DNA of 64,000 nucleotides from a bacterium (GTDB taxonomy: Bacteria > UBA8248): positions 224,001 through 288,000 of the forward strand of contig CBDATS010000008.1 in the NCBI GenBank assembly GCA_965200245.1, read 5' to 3'. The translations under genes were made by a program, and so were the position numbers. Shown here piece by piece: positions 709 to 52,910 of the stretch. Position 1 is the first letter of the stretch; each line of letters opens with the position of its first letter. The notes under the pieces are model-generated. The model worked only from the letters and a program-made list of their open reading frames with translations. It was not told the origin of the DNA and did not search any database.

Positions 709-1625
709 TACCGAGAGGATGGTCCCGTATTGGCCAGAAGGGCCAGTGGCGATACCGTCTCCAGAATGATATGGATCCGGCAGGGCGCGGCATCTGACGG
801 TACCGTATTTGGTTGTCCAAGCATGATTAGGCGCACCATATGTAGAGGCATTCTTTCTTTCCTCTCACCTTCTGCCAAAGCTATGCGGGACAACCACGCG
901 GGTGGTAGTGACGCTCTGGGGGCTACTGTTTTTACCTCGGCAGGCACGGACTGCTGGTTGCGCAGATTGTCGATGATGACGCGCGCCCTCATACTCTTTC
1001 GCAGTTTCTGCGCCCGCGCCGGCGGAAGAAATGCCAAGATTTCCAGACCATCGTCTCCGCCTCTGCGCAGATCCGATACTGGCGTGCCGACATCCACGGC
1101 TTGTCCGACATGAAGATGAAACGCCGACACTACGCCCGAATAGGGAGCGACAATCGCGCTCGCAGCTCGGTGTGCGAGCAGTCCTACCAGCTCTTGGCGG
1201 GCCACCGCCAGAAGCCCGCCGTCGAAATTGGTACCTGGTCCGTCTTGACTGGCCTCGCGCTCCAACAAGGCGATTCTCTTCCGCAGAACGGTCAGTTGTG
1301 TATCGAGTTCTGGCAACCGAAGGCGAGCAATCGGCTGGCCCTCGGCAACTTCGTCGTTCACTCGAACCAGAATTTCCGACACGGTGCCCGTCGTTCCGGA
1401 CAGTATGGTATGACGCTCTCCCGAACGCAGGATGAAGCCGTTCGCGGTCATGCTTCGTTCCAGGCTGCCAAACGCCAACCAGACGCAAGCGGCGGCGAAT
1501 GCGATAAGAAAACCGGTCAGGATGAGCCATTCATGCGGCGCCGTAATGCGCAGCAAATCATCCAGAGGATCCGGATTTGATTGCCTGAGAATGGCACGTT
1601 CCCGAAAGAGCCCTAGCGTAAACAT
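708..1625 (-). CDS. NHLP bacteriocin system secretion protein (HlyD-like membrane fusion protein)
   Basis: N-terminal FRERA..PDPLDDLLRIT..W pattern, single TM helix, lipoyl-like hairpins (GTVSEILV..VAEGQPIA; IVAPYSGVV); coupled to C39 transporter. Confidence 0.85.
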   Translation of the reverse strand: MFTLGLFRERAILRQSNPDPLDDLLRITAPHEWLILTGFLIAFAAACVWLAFGSLERSMTANGFILRSGERHTILSGTTGTVSEILVRVNDEVAEGQPIARLRLPELDTQLTVLRKRIALLEREASQDGPGTNFDGGLLAVARQELVGLLAHRAASAIVAPYSGVVSAFHLHVGQAVDVGTPVSDLRRGGDDGLEILAFLPPARAQKLRKSMRARVIIDNLRNQQSVPAEVKTVAPRASLPPAWLSRIALAEGERKERMPLHMVRLIMLGQPNTVPSDAAPCRIHIILETVSPLALLANTGPSSR

Positions 1626-1956
1626 TGTCAGGCAAACCCGCTTTCATACATCTAGTTAGGCAGAAGTAACTATATCAAAGGATAAACTTAACAAAAAAAA
1701 AACCAATGTCAATACCGCACCATGAGTGGCTGCCAGCCATTTCCCGGTGAAAGGAGGAAAGAAGAGCCAGTCCCCATTGATTCCATAACCTTGGGAAGAT
1801 CGACGAGAATCAAGCCGCCTCCGAGAAACTCATTTCCCGGTAGAACCAAACGCCGCCTTTCTGTTGCAATTCTCTGTCCCGCCCTCTAGGATATTCTGAG
1901 TTTCCGCGAATCCGTTCCAGGAACTGTCACCCATCCAAAACCGCGAGGATACAGGC

Positions 1957-3654
1957 GTGAAATCCACATTCATTCTCACCATTGCTATCTTTACCTTATT
2001 CACAGCGAATGCGGCCCATTTTGCACGCGGCGCAGATGGGCATCTGCGCATCATTTACTGGCAGGCACCTTCCACCATGAACCCCTATCTCTCGGGCGGC
2101 ACCAAGGAGATAGAGGCCGCATCGCTGGTTCTGGAGCCCCTCGCGCGTTACGACCAAAACGGGAACATGGGGCCCTGGCTCGCCGAGCGGGTTCCCACGC
2201 TGGAAAACGGCGGTGTCTCGAAGGATTTGCGCACCATCACTTGGAAGCTCAAGAGCGGTCTCAAGTGGGCCGACGGAACAGCGGTGACAGCGAAGGACGT
2301 GGTGTTTACTTGGAAATACTGCACGCATCCCCAAGGGGGGTGTTCGCAGAGCGAGAAATACAACGATGTGAAGAACGTCGAGGCCTTGGACGCGCTCACA
2401 ATGCGTGTGACCTTCGGTATCCCAAAACCTTTTCCCTACGGGCCGTTTGTCGGCGCGCAGGCGCCTATCATCAAGGCGGCACAGTTCGCCGACTGCTTGG
2501 GCGCCAAGGCACCGCGTTGTACCGACGCCAATTTCAAGCCCGTGGGCACGGGTCCTTTCTCCGTAGCAGAGTTTCGTCCGAACGACGTCATCTCTTTCGT
2601 GGCCAACCCCAACTACCGCGACCCGGCAAAGCCGGCCTTCGCGCGTGTGACCTTCAAGGGAGGTGGCGACGCAGCGGCGGCGGCCCGATCGGTCCTGGAG
2701 ACTGGCGAGTTTGACTACGCCTGGAACTTGCAACTTGCCCCCGACGTGCTGGCGAACATGAAAAAGGCGGGCAAGGGAGTGGTCATATCCTCGTTCGGTA
2801 CGCTGGTCGAGCGCATCGTCGTGAACCTGACGAATCCCGATTCCAAACTCGGCAAGGAGCGCTCCACTGTCAAGCACCCGCATCCTTTCCTTTCTGACCC
2901 AAGCGTGCGTAAGGCGCTTTCGATGGCCATCGATAGAAAACTGCTCGTGGAAATCGGCTATGGACCCGCCGGCAGGCCGATTTGCAACATTCTCCCCGCC
3001 CCCATCATCTATAAGTCTACTGCCAACGACGGTTGCCTCAAGCAAGACATTCCCGGCGCGAACAAGTTACTGGATAAGGTGGGTTGGAAGCGCGGGCCGG
3101 ACGGCGTGCGGCGCAAAAACGGTGTGAAACTCTCGATTCTCTACCAGACTTCCACCAACGCCGTACGACAGGATTTCCAGGCTCTCATCAAGCAGTGGTG
3201 GTCCAAAATCGGTGTAGAGACAGAACTTCGCAACATCAGTGCCTCGGTGTTCTTTGGTGGCGATCCAGCAAGCGGCGACACCTTTCAGAAATTCCAGGCA
3301 GATGTGGAGATGTACGCCAACAACTTCGACGGCACGGATCCGGAATCCTACATGGCGAACTGGGCGTGCAAGGAAGTACCGAGTCCCGCTACACAGTGGC
3401 AAGGCAACAACGTGCCGCGCTACTGTGATCCTGCCTACGACGTGCTCGTCTCCAGGATGGCGCGCGCGGGCGCGCTGAAAGAACGCGCCCGCCTCGCCAA
3501 GGCCATGAACGACAAGCTAATGCAAGCTTACGTGCTCATACCGCTAGTCGACCGCGGGCGCGTATCGGCCCATTCGAAAAAGTTGAGCGGCGTGGTTCTG
3601 AACACCTGGGACTCGGAACTGTGGAACATCGCCGACTGGCGCCGCGTCAAATAG
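1957..3654 (+). CDS. Peptide ABC transporter substrate-binding protein (family 5)
   Basis: Signal peptide, LKWADGTAVTAKDVVFTW, PVGTGPF, VRKALSMAIDR motifs. Confidence 0.92.
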   Translation: MKSTFILTIAIFTLFTANAAHFARGADGHLRIIYWQAPSTMNPYLSGGTKEIEAASLVLEPLARYDQNGNMGPWLAERVPTLENGGVSKDLRTITWKLKSGLKWADGTAVTAKDVVFTWKYCTHPQGGCSQSEKYNDVKNVEALDALTMRVTFGIPKPFPYGPFVGAQAPIIKAAQFADCLGAKAPRCTDANFKPVGTGPFSVAEFRPNDVISFVANPNYRDPAKPAFARVTFKGGGDAAAAARSVLETGEFDYAWNLQLAPDVLANMKKAGKGVVISSFGTLVERIVVNLTNPDSKLGKERSTVKHPHPFLSDPSVRKALSMAIDRKLLVEIGYGPAGRPICNILPAPIIYKSTANDGCLKQDIPGANKLLDKVGWKRGPDGVRRKNGVKLSILYQTSTNAVRQDFQALIKQWWSKIGVETELRNISASVFFGGDPASGDTFQKFQADVEMYANNFDGTDPESYMANWACKEVPSPATQWQGNNVPRYCDPAYDVLVSRMARAGALKERARLAKAMNDKLMQAYVLIPLVDRGRVSAHSKKLSGVVLNTWDSELWNIADWRRVK

Positions 3655-4706: not shown

Positions 4707-5571
4707 CGCAAGACGCGGTGCATGGGCGCAGTTCCGCACCCACCGGGGGGCGATGATAGGGGCGGGGATTCTGATCGTTGCGGCGCTGGCTGTCACTCTC
4801 GGCCCGCTCCTTTGGACCATCGATCCGCACCTCATCGACATACGCGCTCGCAACAGGGGAATCAGTCTGGCACATCCACTCGGAGCCGACCGCCTCGGCC
4901 GCGACACCTTGGCGCGCATGCTTGCGGGCGGGCGCGTTTCACTCGCGGTGGCGGGCGCCGCCATGGGCCTGGCCCTCTCAGTGGGCGCCGTGATCGGGGT
5001 GGTTTCTGGCTACTTCAGGCGGCTGGATGGCCCGCTCATGCGTCTTGCTGACCTTTTTCTGGCGCTGCCGCTTCTGCCGCTTCTGCTCGTGATCATCGCT
5101 CTGTTTCGCGACGCCCTGCGCACTGCCTTCGGGCCCGAGACCGGTATCTTCATCCTTATCGCCTCGGTGATCGGCCTGACTTCTTGGATGAAGACCGCCC
5201 GCATCGTGCGCGGCGAGGTGCTCGCCCTCAAGGAGCGCGAGTTCGTGCTCGCTTCAGGCGCGCTTGGGGCGTCCACGGGACGCATCATCTTCCGCCACAT
5301 CCTGCTAGGCGTCGTCTCGTCCATTATGATCTCGGCAGCCTTGGGCGTAGGCGACGCCATCATCACCGAATCGGCTCTCTCCTTCTTGGGACTGGGTTTT
5401 CCGCCGGACTTTCCCACTTGGGGGAGGCTGCTCTATGACTCGACCGATTATCTCCAGCAATACCCCGAGCGCGTCCTTTGGCCCGGCCTCGCGATTTCGC
5501 TCACCGTGTTGAGCATCAACTACGTGGGCGATGGGCTGCGCGACGCGCTCGACCCCCGATCGCGGGCATGA
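4699..5571 (+). CDS. Peptide ABC transporter permease (OppC/DppC type)
   Basis: HPLGADRLGRD, EREFVLASGALGAS, GDGLRDALDPR. Confidence 0.92.
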   Translation: MISARRGAWAQFRTHRGAMIGAGILIVAALAVTLGPLLWTIDPHLIDIRARNRGISLAHPLGADRLGRDTLARMLAGGRVSLAVAGAAMGLALSVGAVIGVVSGYFRRLDGPLMRLADLFLALPLLPLLLVIIALFRDALRTAFGPETGIFILIASVIGLTSWMKTARIVRGEVLALKEREFVLASGALGASTGRIIFRHILLGVVSSIMISAALGVGDAIITESALSFLGLGFPPDFPTWGRLLYDSTDYLQQYPERVLWPGLAISLTVLSINYVGDGLRDALDPRSRA

Positions 5572-5738
5572 TCGCAGCCCGCCCGAAGCACCTTTCCGGG
5601 CGAACCTGGATGCGCTTTCATCCTTGCGCAGACGAGTGAGCTCTGGCACGATTCATCCTCGGTAGAATACTCTCAAGACATGGCAATACGCCGGTTCGAA
5701 TGTTCTGACCGGCGCCCCTTTGTACAGGAACGACCGAC

Positions 5739-6191
5739 ATGGCCGATAATCAGAACGTCACCTTCATTTGCCCCGCGTGTGGGAAGAACGAACTGCCTCT
5801 TGAGGGCGCAGGCGATCCAAACGAAATCCTCTACATCGAACTCGCGGAAATGGATACCTGCGACGAGGCGCAGACGGCGCGCTTCGTCTTTGGCGATTCG
5901 TTCACCAAAGGTTTCGGAGGCGTGGTGCGCGACGTGGACGCGGAAGGAGAGGAACGCGTGCGCTGGGTTCCCCCGAGGGCGGTGGTGGCGTATCACTTCG
6001 CGAGAAACGAAGAGCGAATCGGCTATGCAGAGCCGATGAACGACTTCTACCCCCAGCCGCTCTACCGCAATCTCTCAAAGGGCGGAGACGTGGAGAATGT
6101 ATTCGTCGCCATGGCGTTTCTACCCCACAACGAGTCCATGACGTCCCAGATGCGTGCACGGGGAGAGGCGCTTGCCAAAGCTCTGGGGTAA
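5739..6191 (+). CDS. Hypothetical protein with N-terminal CxxC
   Basis: AGGA RBS, protein-like composition, FICPACG; family not recognised. Confidence 0.55.
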   Translation: MADNQNVTFICPACGKNELPLEGAGDPNEILYIELAEMDTCDEAQTARFVFGDSFTKGFGGVVRDVDAEGEERVRWVPPRAVVAYHFARNEERIGYAEPMNDFYPQPLYRNLSKGGDVENVFVAMAFLPHNESMTSQMRARGEALAKALG

Positions 6192-6845
6192 AGAGTCGCT
6201 GAAAAAACGCTGATTTCGATAGACCCAACCGGGAAGAAGGTCCATAGCGGATAGGCTCCTGTGCCTGTCCGAGTTGCAACCTGAGGGACAGCCCCGAGGA
6301 GGGGTTGTCACTACCAAGCAGTTCAGCCTTGTTCGTCTTAGGAACGCAAGAAGTGGTCGACGCTTGGTGTCATCCTCGAACAGATTGTTATCTATTGAGT
6401 TACATGATATTTCGAACTCTCATCTAATCTCCTGGTCTCAACATGAAATCAAAACGAAAGCGGATTCATTGCAAGTGTCGCATATCACCTTGTGCCCGAG
6501 TCGGGCAAACATTCTTCCGGCCGTGACGATAGTGACAGCAACGGCTCGTTATCCTGTTCGAACACGGCAGACCCGATTCGGTGTTTTCGCGACTCGACCC
6601 AGGTGATGCAGTAGTCCCCTCTGTCATTGCCCGGACAAACAATTCCCGTGCCGGCAAGATGATGAGAAGGATGGACTCTCCCGACAAAATCACACTGGAA
6701 CAAGAAGATAAAGCATACCGCCTGGCACGATGGGTTGCCGATGTAACAGGTCCACATCATCGACCTTGAGCCTGGCAGGGTTTTCCACTCCATTTGAGGA
6801 AAAACGCTCTGCACTCCCAATCCGTTGGACGAGAAAGCAATCATC

Positions 6846-6887
6846 TGGAACGAGAGGACGGACAAGTGGAACGAGAGGACGGACAAG
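6846..6887 (+). repeat. 21-bp perfect tandem duplication TGGAACGAGAGGACGGACAAG x2
   Basis: Seen directly; encodes WNERTDK twice in a short degraded ORF. Confidence 0.9.
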
Positions 6888-7311
6888 AAAATGCAGCAAG
6901 CCCGGAAGTGGCGCAAACGGATGATCGAGCTATTGACTCACCGCATTTTCAATTCATCGGGCAAGAGAACCTCCTTCGAGTCTGTGGTACATTTGCGCCG
7001 CCACTCTGGCACCTAATCGCGTGACCATTGACAGGAGTGGTTACGTTGAAAGAGAATCACCGGCTAGATAGGTTCGTATCTGCACTGGAGAATACTCCTT
7101 GCGGAACACGAATTGATGGCAAGGCATCTGACACCGCCCGGTTTCCGGAGAAAATCGATGGCCGAAGCATATCTCCAGCGGCTTCTCGATTACGGTACCG
7201 TAAAGCACGGTTCACAGATGTTTCCAAAGCTTTATGAGGGTGGATGAGAACTGACCCATAGAAAACCAGGGGTGACGAGTTATATCCTTGCGTATAAATG
7301 GAGTGGGAAAG

Positions 7312-8164
7312 ATGAAAAACTTGCTGACCGCAGTGCTGGTTACCTTGTTGGCAACCGGAATGGCTCAAGCGCAGCAACCCGATCCCGACAAGCCCGTGAT
7401 GACCAAAGTCACTGAGGGAGTCTATCACTATTTCCACCACCACTACTCGAGCCTCGTCGTAGTTACCGACGAAGGCGTAATCGTCACCGACCCTTCAGGT
7501 GCAGCGCGGGCAGCGGTGATGCGCAAGGAAATCCGCAAGCTCACCGACCTGCCGGTGAAGAAGGTGATCTATTCGCATGATCATTTCGATCATTCGCGAG
7601 GTGGCCAGATATTCAAGGACGAGGGAGCAGAATTCATCGCTCATGAAAAATGCATTGAACTGATGAGCCGGGACCTGGAAAAACAGGTGGTTCTGCCCGA
7701 CGTAACCTATAGCGACAAGATGAGTGTGCAACTCGGCGGCAAGACCGTGAATCTACACTATTACGGCCCCAATGACGGCGACTGTATGAGCGTGATCCAC
7801 ATGCCAAGGGAAAAGTTCTGGTTGCCGTGGACTGGCATCTATAAGGCTACGTGAACGAACCCTATCGCCTCAACACGCACAACTATATCGCTATCCTCAA
7901 TACCATGAAGCGGGTCCGCAAGGAACTGGATTTTGACTTCGTGATTTCGGGGCACATGCCAAAGTCGTCGCCGGAGCAGTTCGAAGAAGATTTCCGCTTC
8001 AACTAGGCTCTGTTCAACGCCGTATGGAAAGGCAGGCAGGCAAATCGGTGGCGGAACTGAAGTGATCTGTCAAGCTGCCCGAGTTTAGCCACTGGCGTGG
8101 GTATGAACGGAATCTGCCCGCTCACGTCGAACGAATGGCCTATTCGATCTGGCATGGAAATTGA
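7312..8164 (+). pseudogene. Secreted MBL-fold metallo-hydrolase, disrupted
   Basis: Signal peptide, YSHDHFDH motif; frameshift near 7810, then continuation (..DFDFVISGH..LPEFSHWRGYERNL) with stops TAA 7842, TAG 8004, TGA 8063 and a second frameshift. Confidence 0.8.
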
Positions 8165-20896: not shown

Positions 20897-21790
20897 ATGT
20901 CGCCGATAGCGAAAGTCGATGGTTACGTCTATTATCCGGGGAGCCAGACGCGTATCGACGCCATGCGCCCCGCCGATCCGGAGAAAACCCCTTGGACGCC
21001 GTTGCCGAAGCCGCTCTCTGAATGTAAGGTCACCCTCGTTTCCACGGCAGGTATACTCATGAAGGGAGATGTCTCCTTCGACTACGAGCGTGAGTGGCGC
21101 GAGCCGCACTGGGGGGACCCCACCCACCGCGAGATTCCCAAAACGGCCGCTCAGGATGATTGCGAATACTCGCACCTGCACATCAATACCGAGTATTTGA
21201 AAAAAGACAGAAACGTGGCGTTCCCGGTGGATATTTTCTTGGGCTACGAGCGCGAAGGGAAAATCGGCGCGCTGGCCGACACCCTCTACTCCACGATGGG
21301 CTATACGCCCAACTTCCATCCCCTGCTCAAGAAGACGGCTCCTCTCATGGCTGAGAAGATGCATTCAGAAGGCGTGGATGCTGCGTTACTCATCCCCGTC
21401 TGACCGCTTTGCATGCGGTCCGTGAGCCTGCTGCAAAGAAAACTTGAAGAATTGGGAATTGCCACCGTCTCGATATGCAACCAGCCGGAAGTCTCGGAGA
21501 AGGTCTGCGTGCCGAGAGCGGTCTTTATCCAGTATCCCTTCGGGCGCATGCTGGGAGACGTGGGTGACAGAGGCGGCCAGCGCGCGGTTTGCGATGACAT
21601 GTGCGCACATTTGCAAGAAGCCACCGGTCCGAACGCTTACCGGCATCTCTCGCACGAGTGGCCCGAACCGCCCGAGGAAACCCAGTGGAAACCGCTTACG
21701 CCAGCACCCATGCATGTCCTGCGTAACAACGGCACGGCGCCCAAAGGACTCGCCCACTATCAAGACGATGAGCGCCCTGATTTGACTTAA
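20897..21790 (+). CDS. PrdB/GrdB-family selenoprotein (Sec at TGA 21401-21403, UPLC)
   Basis: ORFs 20897-21403 and 21413-21790 are in one frame, joined by TGA-CCG-CTT-TGC; TPWTPLPKPLSECKVTLVSTAG, DRNVAFP, VDAALLIPV-U-PLC..EELGIATV..VPRA..PFG match the reductase selenoprotein B family. Confidence 0.88.
21407..21438 (+). promoter_or_regulatory. Candidate bacterial SECIS hairpin
   Basis: CTTTGCA (21407-13) pairs with TGCAAAG (21432-38); inner stem with a GUG-containing loop about 18 nt after UGA. Confidence 0.6.
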
Positions 21791-44249: not shown

Positions 44250-44636
44250 GGATACGACTCGCGCCGCCCGTTCGGACGAGTGAACCCCGATTCCCGGAAG
44301 GCCCCTGAACTACCGTACGATTTCACTTTCCCCATGGGAGTGATGGTCAAGAAAATGGACGACAGTGCCCAGAAAACAGAACAGATACAGCCCTTCTTCC
44401 GGCCCTCCTGGACAGTGTCCATGGGCCTGATACCGGAACTTGCTCTGAAAATAGGCATGCCCTACACTTAGCAAAGCGTTGATTTCAAGGGTGGCTGGCT
44501 CCATTGAGGACAGGATATGCATCATCCGGGCTCTTGAGTGCTTGGTGAAGGGGTGGTTGTTCGGTCCAATCGAGACTTCGGACCTCATATAATAACCATG
44601 ACTTCTCACCGGATCTCGCGCAAGGAGGATGCAGCC

Positions 44637-45533
44637 GTGTCGGAAACCTACACCCATCACACCAATCCCGATTACCTGGTAGTGACCACATGGAATGACA
44701 GGATATATGAATCTCATGGCGTGAATTTCGACAAAACATATAACTGGCCATTTCCGCGCATTGCATACAATGAAGACAGGGACATGTTCGACATAATTCC
44801 CGAATGCAAGAGATTCGTAGAAAATGCCAGGAAAAGAGGCATGACCGACGAGGAGAAACTCAAGCTCAGACAAAAAAACATGGTATCAGCTACGCCCAAG
44901 GACTGGCATTTCGATGTAATCAGATTCTCCTACAAGGTTTACGCCTATACACATGCCGTCCTGAATGACATGGCCAAAAGGGGTATCATGTACTTTGATG
45001 CCGACTTCGTGTTCAAGGATGGACCTCCCGTAGACGAGAAGTGGATATCGGATAATGTACACAGGGACCATGCCCCCGTATCCTACTTGTCCAGCACAGG
45101 CGAGATCATGGCAGAATCGGGATTTGTATACTTCAACATGGAACATCCAGAGACCAGAAACCTGGTAGCCGAGATAAGAAACTGCTACGATTCAGGTTCG
45201 GTATTCAATATGGACAGGTGGGATGATGGCTATGTGCTGGGCTGGGTACTGAGAGATTTCGAGAACAGGAATGGAATCAGGAATCACAATATGACGATCG
45301 ACATGGACACATCCATTGTCAACTGCGTAATGGATAGCCCACTGGCCAGCGTGGTCGAACATCATCTTGGATACAAGACATACCCGTCGTATAGCAGGGA
45401 GTTTTTCGAGAATGACCTCATGGCTGAATTGAAACTATCCCTGATAACAGAACTGAGAGACAAGAAACTGTCCCGAATAATCGAACGAAGAAACAGAATG
45501 TCATCTCCCCAACGCACAGATTCAGAATCATGA
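44637..45533 (+). CDS. Low-GC putative GT-A-fold glycosyltransferase
   Basis: FDVIRFSYKVYA, YFDAD (DxD), ESGFVYFN, WDDGYV; AAGGAGG RBS before GTG; AT-richer codon use. Confidence 0.55.
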   Translation: MSETYTHHTNPDYLVVTTWNDRIYESHGVNFDKTYNWPFPRIAYNEDRDMFDIIPECKRFVENARKRGMTDEEKLKLRQKNMVSATPKDWHFDVIRFSYKVYAYTHAVLNDMAKRGIMYFDADFVFKDGPPVDEKWISDNVHRDHAPVSYLSSTGEIMAESGFVYFNMEHPETRNLVAEIRNCYDSGSVFNMDRWDDGYVLGWVLRDFENRNGIRNHNMTIDMDTSIVNCVMDSPLASVVEHHLGYKTYPSYSREFFENDLMAELKLSLITELRDKKLSRIIERRNRMSSPQRTDSES

Positions 45534-45782: not shown

Positions 45783-46481
45783 TTGTCCATCGAACCGAAC
45801 GGTCTGGATATTCGGAAAGTGAGGTGTGCCATCCTCAGGAAGATTTTCGGCTGGTTCACTCGAAGGAACAACCTCTCACCGGGGAGTCGTTCACCTGCTT
45901 CAGGCGGCGGTTTCGGCCTGCCGATGGTGCCGGATCAGGCAGAACAGGAAGCCCTTTTTGCCGAGAAAATCGAAGCCCATGGCAAGTGGCTGCAAAGTTC
46001 GGGAGCGCGAGGAGAACGTGCGAACTTTGCGGGCTCGAATCTGGAAAGCATCAGTTTATTCATGGCGAACCTCTCCAAGGCAGATTTGCGCGAGGCGTGC
46101 CTGTTCCATGCCAACGCGCAATGGGCGAACTTGGATGGGGCTGATCTCACGGGTGCCAATCTCGAAGGAGCCGATCTGTTTCAGTCAAGCCTTGAGGGGG
46201 CGAATCTCAGCGGCGCGCGGATGGCCGGGGCCAACATGATGTCCGCTGCTCTCAAATTCGCTGATTTGACGGACGTAGACCTCACGGGAGCCGACCTGCG
46301 CGGGACCTCGCTCCAGCGGACAAAACTCTCAGGCGCGAATCTTCTGGATGCTCTCATCGACAATGCCGATCTGGAACTCGCCGACATCCGTGGTGTCGAC
46401 CTCTCGGGCGTGAAGGGCCTCACACCCGAGCAGGCTGAAGGCGCGCTCAAGGACGGGGAGACACTTTTTCCAGATGTGTGA
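45783..46481 (+). CDS. Pentapeptide repeat protein (start uncertain)
   Basis: HGKWL..GERANF followed by many A(D/N)Lxx repeats. Confidence 0.88.
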   Translation: MSIEPNGLDIRKVRCAILRKIFGWFTRRNNLSPGSRSPASGGGFGLPMVPDQAEQEALFAEKIEAHGKWLQSSGARGERANFAGSNLESISLFMANLSKADLREACLFHANAQWANLDGADLTGANLEGADLFQSSLEGANLSGARMAGANMMSAALKFADLTDVDLTGADLRGTSLQRTKLSGANLLDALIDNADLELADIRGVDLSGVKGLTPEQAEGALKDGETLFPDV

Positions 46482-46590
46482 GGCCTGTCTCCGGGATATT
46501 TTTTGGGTGCCTTCCCTGTGTCTTTTTCTTTGGCGGGATTCGGTTTATGATGAGTTTTTGTCGAGATTCAACGAGCAGGAGTAACGCCCC

Positions 46591-47685
46591 ATGGCACAGA
46601 CGACACGGATGTTGGACCACGAAGTCGATTTGGTGGAGTACTACTACGAACAGGGTTTCACGGACGGGCTTCCCGTCGTACCGCCCACGCCGGAGAAGAT
46701 AGATGCAACCGTCGCGGCACTGGGAGGTGATAAGGACTTCATCGAATGCCGCGTGCCCCCACGCTGGGGCAACCTCACGAGAGAGGTGCTTGCGATCAAC
46801 ATGGTGATGGCGGGCTGCAAGGTGGAATACGCGTCCATTGTTCGTGCGGCGATGCTCGCGCTTTGCGACCCGCACTTCAACCTGAACGGCGTGCAAGCCA
46901 CCACCCACATGGCATGTCCGCTCATCGTGGTGAACGGACCGATTCGAAACGAGGTCGGCATGAACGCGGGCTGCAACGTGTTCGGCTCGGGCAACCGCGC
47001 GAACGCGACGATAGGCCGCGCGGTACGGATGATTCTCCTGAACGTGGGCGGTGCGTGGCCAGGCGATCTTGACAAGAGTACGCTGGGCTGTCCCACAAAA
47101 TACACCTACTGCATCGCGGAGAACGAAGAGGCGAGCCCTTGGGCGCCCTATCACGTGGAACAAGGCTACGCGCCCGAGGATTCCACCGTCTTTGCCATCG
47201 CTGCCGAGGCACCGCACAGTGTGACGAACCACATCGCGGACGATCCCGAGGGAATCCTCGACAGTATCTGCTCGGCGATGAGCACGATTGCGCACAACAA
47301 TTCAGTGAGCAGCGGATCGTGCGCCGTCGTCATTAGCCCAGAACATGGGGCGACCATCAGTGCCAGGAACTGGACGCGAAACGACGTGAAAAGCTACCTC
47401 TGGATGCATACCAGGAACACGTTTGCCGATATCTCGTTCAACCACCGTTACGGCAAGGTTTACAACCGCAACATTCCCAAGTGGTACAGACGCGCGCCGG
47501 AGGAGAGAATTCCCATCGTGCCGAGCCCCGAGAATATCCACCTGTTCGTAGCGGGCGGGGATGCGGGTCGTTTTTCGGCCTTCATCCCCGGCTGGGGCCA
47601 CATGACAAATCCGGTGCTCCGGGCAATCGACGGCAAGGTGCTCGAAGGCGGCCCCGTCTGCGTGGACGGCACCTGTCTGCTTTAG
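46591..47685 (+). CDS. UGSC-associated conserved protein (large partner)
   Basis: GFTDGLPVVPPT, AINMVMAGC, NRANATIGRA, IAENEEASPW; this family is typically next to or fused with UGSC domains. Confidence 0.8.
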   Translation: MAQTTRMLDHEVDLVEYYYEQGFTDGLPVVPPTPEKIDATVAALGGDKDFIECRVPPRWGNLTREVLAINMVMAGCKVEYASIVRAAMLALCDPHFNLNGVQATTHMACPLIVVNGPIRNEVGMNAGCNVFGSGNRANATIGRAVRMILLNVGGAWPGDLDKSTLGCPTKYTYCIAENEEASPWAPYHVEQGYAPEDSTVFAIAAEAPHSVTNHIADDPEGILDSICSAMSTIAHNNSVSSGSCAVVISPEHGATISARNWTRNDVKSYLWMHTRNTFADISFNHRYGKVYNRNIPKWYRRAPEERIPIVPSPENIHLFVAGGDAGRFSAFIPGWGHMTNPVLRAIDGKVLEGGPVCVDGTCLL

Positions 47686-47712
47686 AATTTTGAGAAGAAC
47701 GGGAGAAAACCA

Positions 47713-48255
47713 ATGAGTGAAGTCATCACGGGTCAGATCGTCTATGACCCCCGGGGGGTGGTAGAGGCAGAAACCCAGCCCACCGCCGAGCGTGTCGGGG
47801 ACCTGAAGGGCTTGAAACTCGGCGTCCTGGATAACACGAAGTGGAACGGGCGCAAGCTGCTCGAGAAGACCACGGCGCTGATGGAGGCGGAGGGCCCCTT
47901 CGCCGAGGTGCGCTACTACAAGAAAGAGAGCTTTTCGAAGAACGCGGCACCCGATTTGATTGCGCAAATCGTGGAGGAGAACGATGTCGTCCTGACGGCG
48001 ATTGGCGACTGAGGCTCCTGCACATCGTGCTGTATGCACGATGCGGTCTCCCTGGAGGAAAAGGGTGTCCCCACCGCCGTTATAGTGACCGAGGTGTTCC
48101 TCCACGAAGCCCGCGTGCAAAGGGCGGCTCTGGGGATGAACGACCTGACCCCGGTGGTTATCCAGCACCCCCTGAGCACGCTCTCGGAAGAGGAAATCTC
48201 CGCGCGCGCGGGTGATGCGGCCCGCCAAGCGGTGAAGGTTCTGCTCAAAGGCTAG
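47713..48255 (+). CDS. UGSC-family selenoprotein (Sec at TGA 48010-48012)
   Basis: ORFs 47713-48012 and 48034-48255 are in one frame: ..LTAIGD-U-GSCTSCCMHDAVSLEEKGVPTAVIVT..IQHPL. Confidence 0.9.
48023..48043 (+). promoter_or_regulatory. Candidate bacterial SECIS hairpin
   Basis: Perfect stem CATCGTGC/GCACGATG with loop TGTAT starting about 19 nt after UGA. Confidence 0.7.
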
Positions 48256-48266
48256 TACATCTATTT

Positions 48267-49499
48267 ATGACAAAGCCCTTGGAAGGTATCCGCGTCCTCG
48301 ACCTGACGCAGTTTCTCTCGGGTCCGCAGGCCACACTTTTCTTGGCGGGCCTGGGAGCCGAGGTCATCCGAATCGACAATCCTGCCACTGGCGACCCGGT
48401 GGCCTATTCCCCTCCCTTCATCGGCGAGAAGGGCGTCTCTTACCATCCCCAAACGGATGAGGACATGGGGATGGCCTATTTGAAGCGTACGCGCCAGAAA
48501 AAGGCGGTCACCCTGAACATCAAGGATCCACGCGGCCTCGAGATGTTCTATGGCCTCGTCGCTCGATCCGACATCTTGGTGGAGAACTTCTCCGTCGGCG
48601 TCACGAAAAGGCTCAAAATCGACTACGAGACGCTTCACGCCCGAAAACCCTCCTTGGTGTATTGTTCCATCACGGGTTATGGACAGACGGGACCTGACTC
48701 CGGCCTGAAGGGTTACGACGCTGTCTCCCAGGCCGCTTCGGGCCTGATGAACCTCACGGGCTTTCCCGACGGTCCGCCCACCAAGGCGGGTTCGGCCCTT
48801 GGCGACAGTATGGGAGGCACGTTCGCCTTCGGCGCCATCATGACTGCGCTCTTTCACCGTGAGCGCACAGGCAAAGGTCAGCATATTGACATTTCGATGA
48901 TCGACTGCATCTTCTCGCTCATCTTCGATGAGCCGATGGATTGTTACGAACGGCTGGGCCTCCCGCCGCGTATCGGCAACCGCATCATGCGGCTCGCGCC
49001 GTTCAATGCCTACGAGACGAAAGACGGCTGGGTAATCGTCGCTTCGGGCACCAACGCGCATTGGCACAACATACTGCACGGCATCGAACGCACCGACCTG
49101 ATAGGCGATGAACGATACGAGGACATGAGCCGGCGCGTGAGCAAGGTAGAGGAAGTCGACGCAATCATCAACGAATGGACTAGGCGGCGCGAGACGAAAG
49201 AGGCAGTCTCCTCACTGCGTGCGCACGACGTTATCTGCGGGCCGGTGAACAACATCGACGACATCCTCGCATGGCCCCATATGCAAGAGCGCGAGATGAT
49301 TGTCGATCTCGAACACCCCACCCTGGGGACGCTCGCCGGTGCGAAAGCCCCCGGTTTTCCCTTCAAATTCAGCGAAATCAAGGGTAGCTACGAGGCCTCC
49401 GCCCCGCTCGTGGGGCAGCACAACGCGGAAATCCTGGGCGGATTGCTCGGCGTGTCCGACGCAGAATTGAAGGGACTGGAAGACGCAGGTGTAATCTAG
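48267..49499 (+). CDS. CoA-transferase family III (CaiB/BaiF)
   Basis: PLEGIRVLDLT, LVENF, CSITGYGQTGP, GYDAVSQA, TGKGQHIDISM. Confidence 0.93.
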   Translation: MTKPLEGIRVLDLTQFLSGPQATLFLAGLGAEVIRIDNPATGDPVAYSPPFIGEKGVSYHPQTDEDMGMAYLKRTRQKKAVTLNIKDPRGLEMFYGLVARSDILVENFSVGVTKRLKIDYETLHARKPSLVYCSITGYGQTGPDSGLKGYDAVSQAASGLMNLTGFPDGPPTKAGSALGDSMGGTFAFGAIMTALFHRERTGKGQHIDISMIDCIFSLIFDEPMDCYERLGLPPRIGNRIMRLAPFNAYETKDGWVIVASGTNAHWHNILHGIERTDLIGDERYEDMSRRVSKVEEVDAIINEWTRRRETKEAVSSLRAHDVICGPVNNIDDILAWPHMQEREMIVDLEHPTLGTLAGAKAPGFPFKFSEIKGSYEASAPLVGQHNAEILGGLLGVSDAELKGLEDAGVI

Positions 49500-49534
49500 G
49501 CACCCTCCCTGGAGGAATCTGCAGGGTTTCTTCC

Positions 49535-50368
49535 ATGAGACGCGGTATCTTCATGCTGATGATGGTTTGTTTCCTCCTTTTGGGGTGCGCCGGAGAAGTC
49601 AACCTCTCGGGAGGGATCAATCCCAAAACGCTCGATCTGGCCGAAGAGGCGCGACGCACGTTCGATGCCGCCTACGTCATGCTCGAGATAAATGGCGAGT
49701 TCATCGGTGGCAGGATGGATGAGAGGTTCGTCCAGGTAAAACTCGCGGGATTAAAGAAAAAACGCCGCACCGTGATTTTCATTCACGGCTGCTCGGGACT
49801 AGGACGCGGGAACTTGCACTATATGCGGATTCTCGCACGGGCGGGCTACGCTGTCATTGCGCCAGACAGCTTCGCACGCCGCTACCGGCCTGAGACGTGC
49901 GATCCTGCGCGACATCGAGGCATAGAAGGTGCGCCGCACAGGCGCGTGGGGCGGATGCGCCAGAAGGAGATTCATCACGCGGCGTACCGGGTTCGGCATA
50001 TCCGATGGGTGGACAGGCAAAACCTCTTTCTGATGGGGCACAGCCAGGGAGGAACCGCAGCCGCTTCCTATGGGGGAGATGAGTTCGGTGCTCACGTCAT
50101 CTCGGGTTCCACTTGCGGGCGCGGCGTTCGAGTGCCTAAAGCGATTCCTGTTCTTGTGCTGTACTCGAAAGGGGATCCCTGGCGGCGTGGGAGGCCCGCC
50201 GATAGATGCCTGCGCAAGGCGAAAGAACGTGGTGTGAACATGGAGTTTCATCTCTTCGAGGGTCGCGCGCACAACTTCTCACGCAACAGGCGAGCCCGTC
50301 GGCTGATTCTCGATTTTTTGAAGCGATACCGCAGAGCGGAAACGATAATGATACAGAGCGCGCTCTAG
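49535..50368 (+). CDS. Dienelactone hydrolase-like alpha/beta hydrolase, probable lipoprotein
   Basis: LLLGC lipobox, HGCSG, GHSQGG, C-terminal His. Confidence 0.8.
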   Translation: MRRGIFMLMMVCFLLLGCAGEVNLSGGINPKTLDLAEEARRTFDAAYVMLEINGEFIGGRMDERFVQVKLAGLKKKRRTVIFIHGCSGLGRGNLHYMRILARAGYAVIAPDSFARRYRPETCDPARHRGIEGAPHRRVGRMRQKEIHHAAYRVRHIRWVDRQNLFLMGHSQGGTAAASYGGDEFGAHVISGSTCGRGVRVPKAIPVLVLYSKGDPWRRGRPADRCLRKAKERGVNMEFHLFEGRAHNFSRNRRARRLILDFLKRYRRAETIMIQSAL

Positions 50369-50461
50369 AAAAATTCCGTTTCGCCCGGTCTTCACGACAA
50401 AGCCGCGCCCCTGTGGTAGGATTCGCCATATCGCATACATGAACTCTGGAGGTTCACCCTC

Positions 50462-51448
50462 ATGCGAATCTGTACGATCAGTCTGGGAGGTGAGGCGCGC
50501 ATCGGCGTCTTGTTCGGGGAGAAAATCGCCGATCTCAAGCTGGCCTATGCCTTGTCGCTGGATGAGGTATCCGCTGCCGAGGCTATTGACCGCGTCGAGG
50601 CCGAGGTTCCCGATGATTGTGAGGAGTTTATCGAGGACCTCGAGTTGAATCGCCCCTTGGCGGAGGAAGCTCTTCAAGTGCTCGAAAATCATGGAAACAA
50701 GCAAGAACCGGTTCGCTTCGACGGGATGCAGGTGGTTTATGAACCCGGTGAAGTCGAAATCCTTCCTCCGGTCGTCCCGGGCACGCTGTTCTGCATGGCG
50801 AGGAACTACGTGGCGCATGCCGCCGAGATGGCGCGCACTCAGGTGGACGACTTTAAGGAAGAACTTCCGCTCTATTGTTTCCTGAAACCTGCGACGTGCG
50901 TGAGTGGCCCCTATGACGATGTGCCTGTCTATCCCTCGATGGAAAAACTCGACTATGAACTCGAACTCGGCGTGCTCATCGGGCAGGGTGGCAAGAACAT
51001 TCCCGTGGAGCGCGCCATGGACCATGTGGGCGGCTACACCTTGTTCAACGACATGAGCGATCGTACGACGCTCAATATGGGCAAGTTCATCGACTGGTAT
51101 GCCATGAAGGCTCCCGACGGTTTCGGCCCCATCGGCCCCTATATCCTCTTGCCCGAAGAAGGGCTCGACCCCCACGATTTACGGCTCAAGCTCTGGGTGA
51201 ACGGCGAACTTAGGCAAGACGCGACCACGGGTGATATGGTCTGGCGCATCGTCGAGCAGGTGTCCTATCTATCGAGTATCACAACACTGCGAACGGGCGA
51301 CATCATCGGCACCGGATCGCCTGCAGGCAATGCCGCTTCTTGGGGAGAATATCTCCAGCCAGGGGATCTGATAGAGGGTGAAATCGAAAGCATCGGACGC
51401 CAAGCTTTCCGCATCAGGATCGAGAACCCCGAGTATGTCCCGGGCTAG
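50462..51448 (+). CDS. Fumarylacetoacetate hydrolase family protein
   Basis: NYVAH, LDYELELGV, FNDMSDR, GDIIGTGSPAG. Confidence 0.92.
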   Translation: MRICTISLGGEARIGVLFGEKIADLKLAYALSLDEVSAAEAIDRVEAEVPDDCEEFIEDLELNRPLAEEALQVLENHGNKQEPVRFDGMQVVYEPGEVEILPPVVPGTLFCMARNYVAHAAEMARTQVDDFKEELPLYCFLKPATCVSGPYDDVPVYPSMEKLDYELELGVLIGQGGKNIPVERAMDHVGGYTLFNDMSDRTTLNMGKFIDWYAMKAPDGFGPIGPYILLPEEGLDPHDLRLKLWVNGELRQDATTGDMVWRIVEQVSYLSSITTLRTGDIIGTGSPAGNAASWGEYLQPGDLIEGEIESIGRQAFRIRIENPEYVPG

Positions 51449-51542
51449 ATTTTCCGGTGGTTGATCCCTGACAGTCCGGGGATTAAGATTTTCTCGGTGC
51501 ACGAGGTGCTCCCGAGCCGCTGAAAACCGAAAGGGGAAACCC

Positions 51543-52910
51543 ATGAACTCACCAATGGCCGAAGCCGAATCACTCCGTATGATGGACAAGGAGCACGTCT
51601 GGCATCCGCTCTTGAACCATTTCGGAATGGAGGAGAATCCCCTCGATGTCGTGGTCAAGGCCGAAGGATCAACCATCCAGGACGCTTCCGGCAGGGAATA
51701 CATTGACGCCATGGCCGGGCTTTGGTGCGTGAACATCGGTTACGGGCGCGACGAGGTGGCCCGTGCGGCCTACGAGCAGATGCTCGAGTTGTCCTACTAT
51801 CCGCTCACGCAGGTAAACCCGCCGGCTGCCAGACTCGCCGAGCGTCTTGCCTCCTTGCTGCCCAAGGGAGTCGAGCGTGTCTGGTTCGTTAACTCGGGTT
51901 CCGAGGCGGTGGATACCGCTATCAAGATAGCCCGTGCCTATGGACGTCTGAACGGCGGGAAGCGGTACAAGATCATCGCCCGCCACCAGGGATATCATGG
52001 AGCGACAATTGGCGGGGCGAGCCTCACCGGACAGACGCTCAGGCGCGCGATGTTCGAACCGCTCCTGCCGGGCGTGATTCACGTAAGTGCACCCTATTTC
52101 TACCGCAGCAACGCAGATACTGAAGAAGAACTCGCCTCCCGCTGCGCGGACGAGCTGGATGAGGTCATCCGCTATGAGGATCCCGGGACTGTGGCGGCGT
52201 TCATCGCGGAGCCTGTCATCGGTGGCGGCGGGGTGATTCCGCCTCCCGCGGATTACCTGAAACGCATGCGTGAGGTATGCAGAAACCACGGCGTGTTGTT
52301 CATCGCCGATGAGGTTATCACCGGCTTCGGGCGCACGGGAGTGCTGTTCGCTTCCGACTTGTATGAGATCGAACCGGATATCATGACGATGGCCAAGGGG
52401 CTGAGCAGCGCCTATCTGCCTATCGGGGCGACGGCGACCACGAGCGAAATTTTCGAGGCCCTGAACGCCGAGGGCGATTCAGGCTTCCTGCAAATCAACA
52501 CTTACGGAGGACACCCCGCGGCCTGTGCAGCGTCGCTCAAGAATCTGGAAATCATGATGGATGAGGAGTTGCCCGCGCGAGGTGCCAAGGTGGGCACTTA
52601 TCTCGGCGGGCTATTGAAGAAACTTTCCGACATTCCACTGGTGGGCGACGTGCGGGGGGTGGGCCTCATCTGGGGCGTCGAGTTGGTAGAAGAGAGTGGT
52701 GCGCCGCTTCCCACGGCGGCCACGGCGAAGGTGCTGGCCTACGCGAAAGAAGCGGGTGTCATTTTCGGCAAGAACGCAGGTATCGCAGCGGGCCCCTCGA
52801 ACACCGTAACCATCAGCCCGCCGCTGGTCTTTACAGAAGAAGAAGCCGAGCGCGCTGCCTCCGCTCTCGACGGTGCCCTGCGCCGCGTCCAGGCGGAGAG
52901 TGGCGTGTGA
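51543..52910 (+). CDS. Class III PLP aminotransferase (omega-amino acid/taurine-type)
   Basis: DAMAGLWCVNIGYGR, NSGSEA, FIADEVITGFGRTG, MAKGL, TYGGHP. Confidence 0.93.
   Translation: MNSPMAEAESLRMMDKEHVWHPLLNHFGMEENPLDVVVKAEGSTIQDASGREYIDAMAGLWCVNIGYGRDEVARAAYEQMLELSYYPLTQVNPPAARLAERLASLLPKGVERVWFVNSGSEAVDTAIKIARAYGRLNGGKRYKIIARHQGYHGATIGGASLTGQTLRRAMFEPLLPGVIHVSAPYFYRSNADTEEELASRCADELDEVIRYEDPGTVAAFIAEPVIGGGGVIPPPADYLKRMREVCRNHGVLFIADEVITGFGRTGVLFASDLYEIEPDIMTMAKGLSSAYLPIGATATTSEIFEALNAEGDSGFLQINTYGGHPAACAASLKNLEIMMDEELPARGAKVGTYLGGLLKKLSDIPLVGDVRGVGLIWGVELVEESGAPLPTAATAKVLAYAKEAGVIFGKNAGIAAGPSNTVTISPPLVFTEEEAERAASALDGALRRVQAESGV

Follow-up and report, generated by a model that had tools for sequence, protein, structure and literature searches.

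A UGSC-family selenoprotein and its unnamed partner in a UBA8248 bacterium: a candidate two-subunit, thiol-driven selenoenzyme encoded next to a family III CoA-transferase

The window considered here is a stretch of 64,000 nucleotides of bacterial DNA (GTDB lineage Bacteria; UBA8248), that is, positions 224,001 to 288,000 of the forward strand of contig CBDATS010000008.1 (GenBank assembly GCA_965200245.1), with position 1 being its first letter. At 46591-48255 are found the two genes with which this report is concerned. The first encodes a protein of an unnamed family, for which I use here simply the term ‘partner’. The second, separated from the first by 27 nt, encodes a member of the UGSC family of selenoproteins, hereafter ‘UGSC’. 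The gene of a family III CoA-transferase follows, and a pentapeptide-repeat gene (as recognized by Pfam) is the upstream neighbour of the partner gene (Table 1). The frame opening at 47713 contains one in-frame TGA only and closes with a TAG at 48253-48255, its read-through product being ...LTAIGD-U-GSCTSCCMHDA... around the TGA, with GD-U-GSC corresponding to residues 98-103. Translation of the partner frame ends in ...GPVCVDGTCLL. A preliminary description of this DNA, made from its letters alone, had pointed to the TGA at 48010, the GSCTSCC which follows it, an 8-bp hairpin, the CVDGTC ending of the partner, and the 11-nt spacing ahead of the CoA-transferase, and all of these are present where it had placed them.

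Table 1. Features of the partner-UGSC locus, in window positions, with what each rests upon
Feature	Position	Strand	Basis or remark
Partner gene	46591-47685	+	364 aa; unnamed family; motifs DGLPVVPPT, MAGC, RANATIGR, ENE
Codon of Cys76 (MAGC), family-wide partner Cys	46816-46818	+	alignment
Codon of Cys174 (YCIAENE), second family-wide partner Cys	47110-47112	+	alignment
Codon of Cys244, Cys specific to tail-bearing partners	47320-47322	+	alignment
C-terminal tail C357-VDGT-C362-LL, proposed mobile dithiol arm	47659-47682	+	alignment, low pLDDT
UGSC-family selenoprotein gene	47713-48255	+	180 aa on read-through of TGA
Probable Sec codon TGA, U100	48010-48012	+	orthologue conservation, Cys homologs, Sec machinery
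Motif U-G-S-C-T-S-C-C	48010-48033	+	read-through translation
SECIS-like hairpin, 8-bp stem, loop UGUAU	48023-48043	+	fold + comparison
Family III CoA-transferase gene	48267-49499	+	ATG 11 nt past UGSC stop
Dienelactone-hydrolase-like, FAH-family and class III aminotransferase genes	49535-52910	+	Pfam matches

Upon read-through, the UGSC product exceeds the curated cut-offs of both of its family models, with 199.6 bits against a cut-off of 25 for PF24696, over residues 10-178 of 180 and across the TGA, and 157 bits against 125 for NF041046. The earlier assignment to the UGSC selenoproteins, that is, is borne out. Comparison with relatives relies here on 80 orthologous loci, which were fetched with the window's partner protein, and on 81 partner orthologs, which are the rows of the partner alignment. 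The TGA is kept in all 76 of the orthologous UGSC genes that cover the site. Homologs with cysteine opposite the TGA, the lack of which would by the preliminary description have refuted its reading, do exist, and indeed are the rule: among 19 full-length database homologs the aligned residue is Cys in 18 and Trp in one.

The hairpin begins 10 nt past the UGA, its arms, CATCGTGC (48023-48030) and GCACGATG (48036-48043), forming a perfect 8-bp stem about a TGTAT loop. As a single sequence this fold is no better than shuffles (z = -1.29, with 22 of 200 shuffles equally stable), such that it is comparison which must argue for a recoding signal. The six pairs of the stem core are conserved in 69-71 of 71 distinct sequences from downstream of the TGA, one compensatory change is seen (G-C to A-T), and a G-U is present in the hairpin loop in 70. 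A Ser codon within the stem is TCG in 70 of the 71; the Ser codon which lies outside the stem varies freely (TCC 46, TCG 19, TCT 5, TCA 1). The hairpin is found at the same position in all seven UGSC paralogs of the genome, the stems of which are of TGC...(A/G)TG and TGG...(A/G)TC types that exchange a C-G for a G-C pair. Rfam, searched at E<=10 over 46000-49000, returned two chance-level matches only and no SECIS family. The hairpin would accord with the rules of bSECISearch.

The machinery is present as well: selA (572.7 bits), selB (391.9 bits) and selD (338.6 bits) are found in the genome, all above cut-offs, along with a tRNA-Sec at C8:357340-357436. Each of the genome's seven UGSC genes possesses one TGA. 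All 12 other genomes of the same genus that were searched have 3-9 UGSC matches each, with one TGA in every match listed; seven genomes of two other families yielded no UGSC match. On such comparative grounds, the TGA at 48010 may be taken as a selenocysteine codon, a point that would seem settled short of protein chemistry. The genome's selD gene (C8:72779-73741, minus strand), it may be added, itself has an in-frame TGA, i.e., selenophosphate synthetase is a selenoprotein here.

A TGA-bearing UGSC gene lies downstream of the partner gene, on the same strand and no more than 1.2 kb away, in 76 of the 80 orthologous loci. The distance is 5.7 kb in one further locus (L080), and a UGSC gene was not found in the three others (L031, L063 and L073), of which L063 offers only 937 nt past the partner. 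The genome itself encodes 13 partner paralogs along with its seven UGSC genes, and six of the latter adjoin a partner paralog, in either order, or are fused to one (at C4:1246524-1248233, minus strand, partner and UGSC share one frame with one TGA).

Fusions are seen also among 67 partner-family representatives of at least 400 aa, drawn from the matches listed. Of these, 39 carry a UGSC domain. That domain is N-terminal in 35, i.e., complete in 15 and in 20 as its post-TGA half (Sec forms as cut by gene callers), and is C-terminal in 4, there as the pre-TGA half, ending exactly one residue before the U. Other long representatives are fused to AhpC/redoxin (5), to the beta chain of ferredoxin:thioredoxin reductase (2, one of which is also among the 20 with post-TGA halves), or to a thioredoxin-reductase-like flavoprotein domain, Pyr_redox_2 (1), and 21 have no Pfam domain, with six of these, at ~710-740 aa, resembling tandem partners. 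In a quick tree of the partner family, the window's group is joined (SH-aLRT 95) by a tail-bearing protein and by P0245, itself a partner::UGSC fusion which, at 55% identity to the window's partner, is the nearest row outside of the orthologs and P0249. Gene order and natural fusions, as read from sequence, thus tie UGSC and partner together as a unit. The earlier claim that the two are subunits of one enzyme accordingly stands strengthened by both the 76 of 80 loci and the 39 of 67 fusions, and is very probably correct.

Two RNA-library runs, both from one study, contain ~60% of the sampled words of 46500-49600. Their contigs bridge, with no differences, the partner/UGSC junction (47628-48185, TGA and hairpin included) as well as the UGSC/CoA-transferase junction (47976-48399). 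Positions 46300-46440 are uncovered in both of these runs, and one contig opens at 46475 with adapter letters; the DNA runs cover all. These observations are consistent with, and a weak hint of, one transcript that starts within the 109-nt gap before the partner gene.

Elsewhere in the genome, four tandem partner paralogs (C4:1230157-1234696, minus strand) are without UGSC genes of their own, with acyl-CoA dehydrogenase and enoyl-CoA hydratase genes nearby. The seventh UGSC gene (C4:1226987-1227529) is ~2.6 kb from this four-partner array, beyond a molybdenum-hydroxylase gene on the opposite strand. In a solitary partner paralog (C2:258810-259835, plus strand), the conserved Trp of the PGW motif is replaced by a TGA (..VIPG*NETS..), which may reflect a broken gene, an assembly error or some other cause. 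Just before this paralog come an HpcH/citrate-lyase-like gene and a 2-oxoacid dehydrogenase E1/E2 set.

UGSC has been catalogued in ocean selenoproteome surveys as the ‘UGSC-containing protein’ (PMC2398784; PMC13188914; PMC9312934), those portions of the surveys that list it giving no function and a ‘likely Trx-like fold’. The family is abundant in environmental bacteria, and its known features, i.e., scores above both cut-offs, a TGA at U, and Cys-form homologs, are shared by the protein described here. As modelled by AlphaFold2 (pLDDT 89.3), UGSC is a parallel beta-alpha-beta sandwich, with the Sec predicted to lie at the start of helix 101-116, following strand 92-98. Its best structural matches are azoreductases and flavodoxins (E 2.6e-5, TM 0.40-0.50), with no thioredoxin among the matches listed. 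The predicted fold, that is, is flavodoxin-like, unlike the thioredoxin-like fold proposed in 2008. Sequence search of solved structures yielded nothing for the partner and, for UGSC, only matches at E>=0.16.

All 76 orthologs share UGSCTSC without change, including the Cys at U+6, which is where this ortholog group differs from UGSC as catalogued. The residue that comes next, the eighth of the motif, varies (C in 55, S in 20, I in 1). The preliminary description had asked after conservation of the extra cysteines, and it is the third that holds up and not the fourth. As four of the genome's seven paralogs carry Trp at U+6 and the fourth Cys varies, ‘Sec plus three Cys’ furthermore is not a feature of the family. 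One of the seven even reads UGSS, that is, it is without the resolving Cys.

The U+6 position may be followed somewhat further. Across the genome's seven loci, Cys at U+6 is found with partner-then-UGSC order (3 of 3) and Trp with UGSC-then-partner order (4 of 4), and four parsed Cys-form UGSC::partner fusions (P0314, P0315, P0357 and P0373) also carry Trp. The U+6 codon, TGC or TGG, pairs in the SECIS stem with the third base two codons on (ATG/GTG versus ATC/GTC, respectively). Because of this pairing within the stem, RNA and protein constraints are entangled at U+6. That the U+6 Cys goes along with the cysteine tail of the partner was considered and abandoned, two tail-less loci of the same genome also having that Cys.

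The sole other matches of UGSC are to the NCBIfam models of GrdB, PrdB and GrdF, at E 0.006-0.008 and across their Sec regions. Scores are low, i.e., 15.6 bits for TIGR01917 (cut-off 602) and 15.8 for TIGR04483 (cut-off 300), and PF07355 does not match the protein. With hhalign, the genome's own GrdB-like protein aligns Sec to Sec (E 0.01, probability 4%). It is in this sense that the distant GrdB/PrdB resemblance of the preliminary description is recovered. GrdB, GrdF, GrdH and PrdB belong to two-subunit enzymes and, like UGSC, possess the Sec in a UxxC-type motif at a helix start, after a beta strand; UGSC has the size of the C-terminal Sec region of GrdB/PrdB only.

Other genes resembling those of these reductases are found in the window and elsewhere in the genome. 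A second likely selenoprotein gene of the window, PrdB-like (20897-21790, plus strand, 297 aa), has its TGA at 21401-21403 in the motif V-U-P-L-C; it scores 117 bits with TIGR04483 (cut-off 300), and positions 215-344 of PF07355 are matched just before the TGA. At C5:575848-579882 (locus L099, plus strand) two genes stand in succession, at 43-1452 and 1477-2805 of the locus. The first is GrdE-like (PF09338, 350 bits), and the second encodes a full-length GrdB-like selenoprotein (PF07355, 397 bits), with one TGA in the motif A-T-U-G-T-G and with no Cys at U+3.

The partner is not matched by Pfam or NCBIfam, and 19 partner-family sequences searched against Pfam at E<=10 gave two single chance matches only. 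The family nevertheless is sizeable: phmmer, run against 1.84 billion representatives, finds 4,852 partner clusters at E<=1e-3, 1,230 of which reach E<=1e-30, and in a word-indexed search 7,675 of 8,000 candidates scored as hits. Of those 7,675, the 120 best, the query's own entry aside, are 72-93% identical, with named sources being Nitrospinota, SAR324, Entotheonella, Rhodospirillaceae, Burkholderiales and Vineibacter. Across the 80 loci, orthologs from many phyla are 70-94% identical to the window's partner. An Atlas search with the partner gave unnamed clusters of the same family only, one of which is auto-named ‘Thioredoxin family protein’.

Just two cysteines are general among 60 diverse family members, these being Cys76 (58 of 60, and 80 of the 81 orthologs) and Cys174 (55 of 60, and 75 of 81). 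Other family-wide residues, among the same 60, are D25, G26, P28, P32, T33, R136, N138, G142, R143 and E177. The partner was modelled from 19 sequences (pLDDT 83.6, pTM 0.85), and the best Foldseek match to that model is a class I fumarate hydratase (Leishmania; E 5e-4, probability 0.87, ~340 columns), a weak match at TM 0.26, rmsd ~18 Å and 8-9% identity. The best Z in a full VIA search is 6.5, over residues 206-339 only and below the trust level of 8, with the alpha subunit of M. jannaschii fumarate hydratase at Z 5.7 over these residues only. A second structural look gave chorismate-mutase/RidA-like units at Z ~6 and a Toblerone-fold enzyme at Z 4.9 over 162 residues, the likeness to the Toblerone-fold cyclic amide hydrolases being a weak structural one and to the model only. 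Class I fumarate hydratases, moreover, have three cluster-binding cysteines, for which the partner, with two family-conserved Cys only, has no counterpart set.

To these general cysteines the window's ortholog group adds three more, Cys244, Cys357 and Cys362, each present in 81 of 81 orthologs. The latter two make up a ‘tail’, a Cx4C followed by exactly two residues in all 81, and reading CVDGTC in 58. Its surroundings are variable. The 8-residue linker before the tail exists in 70 distinct versions among the 81 orthologs, spacing from a GWG motif to the tail ranges over 22-26 residues, and pLDDT of the partner model is below 50 at residues 354-358 and 360-364. In the family-wide alignment, Cys244 is found in 10 of 60 diverse rows, all 10 with the Cx4C tail, and in 0 of 46 tail-less rows; one row which has both (P0325, 40% identical) falls outside of the ortholog group. 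C-terminal Cys pairs overall are seen in 9 of 150 representatives, one false positive included.

A Cx4C near the very C-terminus is shared with the alpha subunit of class Ia ribonucleotide reductase, to which the partner has no sequence or fold relation. In the E. coli enzyme C754/C759 is described as an electron carrier from thioredoxin to the active-site pair (bioRxiv 10.1101/2021.07.31.454598). By analogy, the partner's tail may tentatively be viewed as a ribonucleotide-reductase-like electron arm. With eight of the 67 long representatives fused to thiol-disulfide electron-donor domains, the pair can be read, from its relatives, as apparently thiol-driven.

The CoA-transferase matches PF02515 at 379 bits over positions 1-366 of 366. 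Its scores against the best NCBIfam equivalogs are 282.8 (cut-off 750) and 280.2 (cut-off 700), and since all such scores are far below cut-offs its substrate is left unassigned. A CoA-transferase gene starts within ~80 nt of the UGSC gene in 22 of the 80 loci, and in 21 of the 80, spread over three lineages, the gene after the pair belongs to one dedicated CoA-transferase clade. The genome has 21 PF02515 matches, and its other full-length transferases are at most 37% identical to that of the window, except for one paralog, C4:920565, at 66%; the UGSC-linked transferases of other lineages are 45-70% identical to it. An IQ-TREE of 35 rows, from which ten near-copies (L017-L026) and hits under 330 aa were left out, places 11 of 12 UGSC-linked transferases, together with C4:920565, in one clade (support 100/99) that spans Nitrospinota-like, alphaproteobacterial and Burkholderiales loci. 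The UGSC-linked label requires three changes on this tree against a shuffled mean of 10.2, and no shuffle out of 500 reached so low a number. The one linked transferase outside of the clade (L094) clusters with transferases that four other loci encode 0.7-4 kb past the pair. The neighbourhood of C4:920565, i.e., two Pfam-less ORFs, TctABC and DJ-1, revealed no relation to the window's genes and supplied no functional clue.

A census of the gene after UGSC was made for loci L028-L095 with a crude ORF caller, 60 ORFs being picked, 8 dropped as more than 1.2 kb away, and 52 scanned. Found were LarA-like proteins (10), CoA-transferases (5), amidases (3), PQQ dehydrogenases (3) and TctC (2), plus one each of acyl-CoA dehydrogenase, methylmalonyl-CoA mutase, FlK thioesterase and MaoC, the rest being unrelated. 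The genome's other pair loci adjoin two acyl-CoA dehydrogenases, or an enoyl-CoA hydratase and another CoA-transferase, or an HpcH-type lyase. An acyl-CoA theme plausibly recurs, then, one neither universal nor statistically controlled. The acyl-CoA-linked substrate of the preliminary description is supported to the extent of that one transferase clade in 21 of 80 loci and three lineages, other lineages having a LarA-like gene, an amidase or unrelated genes in that place. That the substrate is a CoA ester or a carboxylate is a possibility to be entertained with some doubt.

The reading preferred here, with a probability of about 0.5, is that UGSC and partner together make up a single redox enzyme of two subunits, dependent on selenium, driven by thiols and most likely a reductase, with a relay cycle and a CoA-thioester substrate. 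That the pair is, in net terms, a thiol-driven reductase is by itself reasonably probable. Among two-subunit Sec reductases, the nearest to have been worked out is Prd, the Sec of which is described as attacking the substrate C-alpha and of which a PrdB U151C variant is inactive (PMC11229817). The partner would serve as substrate-binding, catalytic subunit, by way of conserved D25, C76, R136, N138, R143, C174 and E177, and a carboxylate would be a fitting ligand for its two invariant arginines. UGSC would be a flavodoxin-like module holding Sec100 at a helix N-terminus and Cys103 one turn later. Sec100 would then attack the partner-held substrate, and Cys103 would resolve the resulting adduct, giving rise to a selenenylsulfide. 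The selenenylsulfide would be re-reduced via Cys106 and partner Cys244, and the flexible Cys357/Cys362 arm would take electrons from a general thioredoxin or glutaredoxin, as does the Cys pair of ribonucleotide reductase. The weakest step would be the handling of a carboxylic acid substrate as CoA thioester by the family III CoA-transferase, which would either deliver the acid in that form or take it away.

The same cysteines might instead be ligands. That is, Cys106 of UGSC (and Cys107, if present), Cys244 and Cys357/Cys362 of the partner, and possibly also Sec100/Cys103, could bind a metal or iron-sulfur cluster at the interface, to structural or catalytic effect. The spacing U100-x2-C103-x2-C106 is indeed of CxxCxxC type, and the four extra cysteines are invariant solely in this ortholog group. 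The family core, however, holds only Sec, Cys103, Cys76 and Cys174, with U+6 being Trp in four of the seven genome paralogs, one paralog having UGSS, and the third Cys of Cys-form relatives sitting at U+7. Nor does a tail upon a variable, low-confidence linker fit a fixed ligand as well as it does a mobile arm. Over its whole chain the partner model does weakly match [4Fe-4S] hydro-lyases, namely class I fumarate hydratase and CyuA (the latter at Z 4.5-4.8), but not at a level that would show kinship. A metal site is thus held to be improbable.

A redox-neutral enzyme is improbable as well. Here Sec100 would be a nucleophile acting on a CoA thioester or 2-substituted acid, as isomerase, racemase, lyase or in group transfer, and the cysteines would protect or regenerate the selenol. 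Neighbours in the various lineages do belong to redox-neutral acid chemistry, including the family III CoA-transferases, the LarA-like racemase homologs of ten loci, and MaoC, FlK thioesterase and methylmalonyl-CoA mutase at one locus each, and Pfam and ORF scans turned up no dedicated electron donor gene in the window. The family III CoA-transferase family also includes racemases. Against this reading, the fusions of partner relatives to redoxin, ferredoxin:thioredoxin-reductase and thioredoxin-reductase-like domains (8 of 67) indicate electron input. The UxxC motif, furthermore, and the only detectable relatives, GrdB/PrdB, belong to reductases.

That last likeness could be taken further, with the partner as a pyruvoyl proprotein of the GrdE/PrdA kind and UGSC as GrdB/PrdB, the pair cleaving an amino-acid C-N bond as in Stickland fermentation. 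The weak matches across the Sec region to the GrdB, PrdB and GrdF models would be in keeping with this, as would the two-subunit Prd with its C-alpha-attacking Sec (PMC11229817, as above) and the class III aminotransferase of the local operon. The partner, however, has no similarity with hhalign to the genome's GrdE-like (PF09338; E 0.49) or GrdB-like (E 0.66) protein, 19 partner-family sequences do not match PF09338 or PF07355 even at E 10, and no pyruvoyl precursor signature was found in it, such that the partner appears, by these comparisons, to be unrelated to GrdE/PrdA as well as to the N-terminal part of GrdB. With UGSC at 15.6 bits against a GrdB cut-off of 602, and with the genome holding a separate GrdE-like/GrdB-like pair, a Stickland enzyme is quite unlikely. 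Least likely of all, to the point of being barely conceivable, is that the TGA is an ordinary stop ending a 99-residue protein ahead of a separate ORF, or else within a broken gene, for though translation table 11 divides the frame into 99-aa and 73-aa ORFs and the 99-residue piece appears in public gene calls (P0126), a single Pfam match runs across the TGA (residues 10-178), the TGA is found in 76 of 76 orthologs with the downstream frame conserved, and Cys homologs, a conserved hairpin and full Sec machinery are present.

Several points weigh against the thiol-driven, two-subunit reductase that is preferred here. Its proposed substrate class leans upon a CoA-transferase which is not directly after UGSC in 58 of the 80 loci (at least three of these 80 ending too soon to judge), its place elsewhere being taken by LarA-like (10), amidase (3) and unrelated genes. 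The modelled partner fold has no confident structural relative, and chemistry would not be readable from it. No thioredoxin or thioredoxin reductase gene was found by Pfam and ORF scans near the pair within the window, and donor genes are rare by the ortholog group, with 46 upstream ORFs including one redoxin and two AhpD-like CMD proteins. The suggested role of the tail is analogy rather than test, and its co-occurrence with Cys244 rests on about two lineages, related rows not being independent. Because the genome has a UGSS paralog and four with Trp at U+6, the relay beyond Sec cannot be uniform across the family. The RNA-library contigs may hold DNA and supply no protein-level evidence of read-through. 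The literature searched, lastly, as far as those papers were available, holds catalogue listings of UGSC only, with no function and no experiment on any member.

In that literature a possible antecedent of the partner is a conserved ‘Unknown_1’ domain, with a conserved Cys, to which UGSC was described as fused in the 2008 GOS paper (PMC2398784). Unknown_1 may correspond to the partner family, 39 of the 67 long partner representatives being UGSC fusions, and the portions of that paper which treat Unknown_1 contain no gene-neighbourhood, donor-fusion or subfamily analysis. New here are the definition of a subfamily by UGSCTSC, Cys244 and a Cx4C-x2 tail, the co-occurrence of tail and Cys244, the one clade of linked CoA-transferases, the codon bias within the stem as evidence of a SECIS, and the lack of kinship of the partner with either GrdE or GrdB.

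What the locus provides is an obligate partner for UGSC, from a family of several thousand clusters that has no database name. It also supports a testable electron path, from a thioredoxin-type donor to the C-terminal Cys pair, on to Cys244 plus Cys106, and then to Sec100/Cys103. The co-inherited CoA-transferase clade, in addition, narrows the search for a substrate to carboxylic acids or CoA esters. The ortholog group is found also in records titled as those of cultured-type strains, i.e., Reyranella sp. and Vineibacter terrae, and genetics and biochemistry therefore are feasible. More speculatively, and rather unlikely as a whole, UGSC and partner might represent a large, undescribed class of thiol-driven selenoenzymes, the paralogs being substrate-diversified reductases of CoA-activated organic acids. 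Such a class would be an aerobic, pyruvoyl-free counterpart to Stickland reductases. In the present subfamily of it, a tail arm like that of ribonucleotide reductase would have taken the place of the usual fused thioredoxin domain, and a CoA-transferase clade of its own would serve the enzyme.

Turning to the remainder of the locus, the dienelactone-hydrolase-like, FAH-family and aminotransferase genes that follow the CoA-transferase are complete as a trio in 8 of the 12 closest loci (L016-L027), while each of the remaining four is missing one gene of the trio or two. Outside of these 12, part of the set is seen again in L028, L032 and L034, and none of it in the other 65. Deduction of a substrate from these local genes was dropped, as they are kept in closest relatives only. 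Flanked by an alpha/beta hydrolase gene and the pentapeptide-repeat gene is an ORF of 331 aa (44538-45533, plus strand) for which neither Pfam nor NCBIfam gives a match and of which no relative was found in any of the 80 orthologous loci. A scan for promoters and terminators gave fewer sites than in shuffles, one plausible terminator-like site being at 51461-51486.

Upstream neighbours of the pair in other lineages, for which 46 of 64 picked ORFs were scanned, reveal no common theme: MpaB/Lcp-like oxygenases (6), glycosyltransferases (5), ABC transporter parts (5), LysR (3), UbiD (2) and sel genes (2) were found. Selenium-machinery genes do adjoin the pair in some proteobacterial loci. Thus in L065 selB (1257-3185, plus strand) comes before the partner, and an NADH-dehydrogenase-like::SelD-like fusion (5157-7379, plus strand) comes after UGSC, while in L086 it is selA (1606-3063, minus strand) that is found before the partner.

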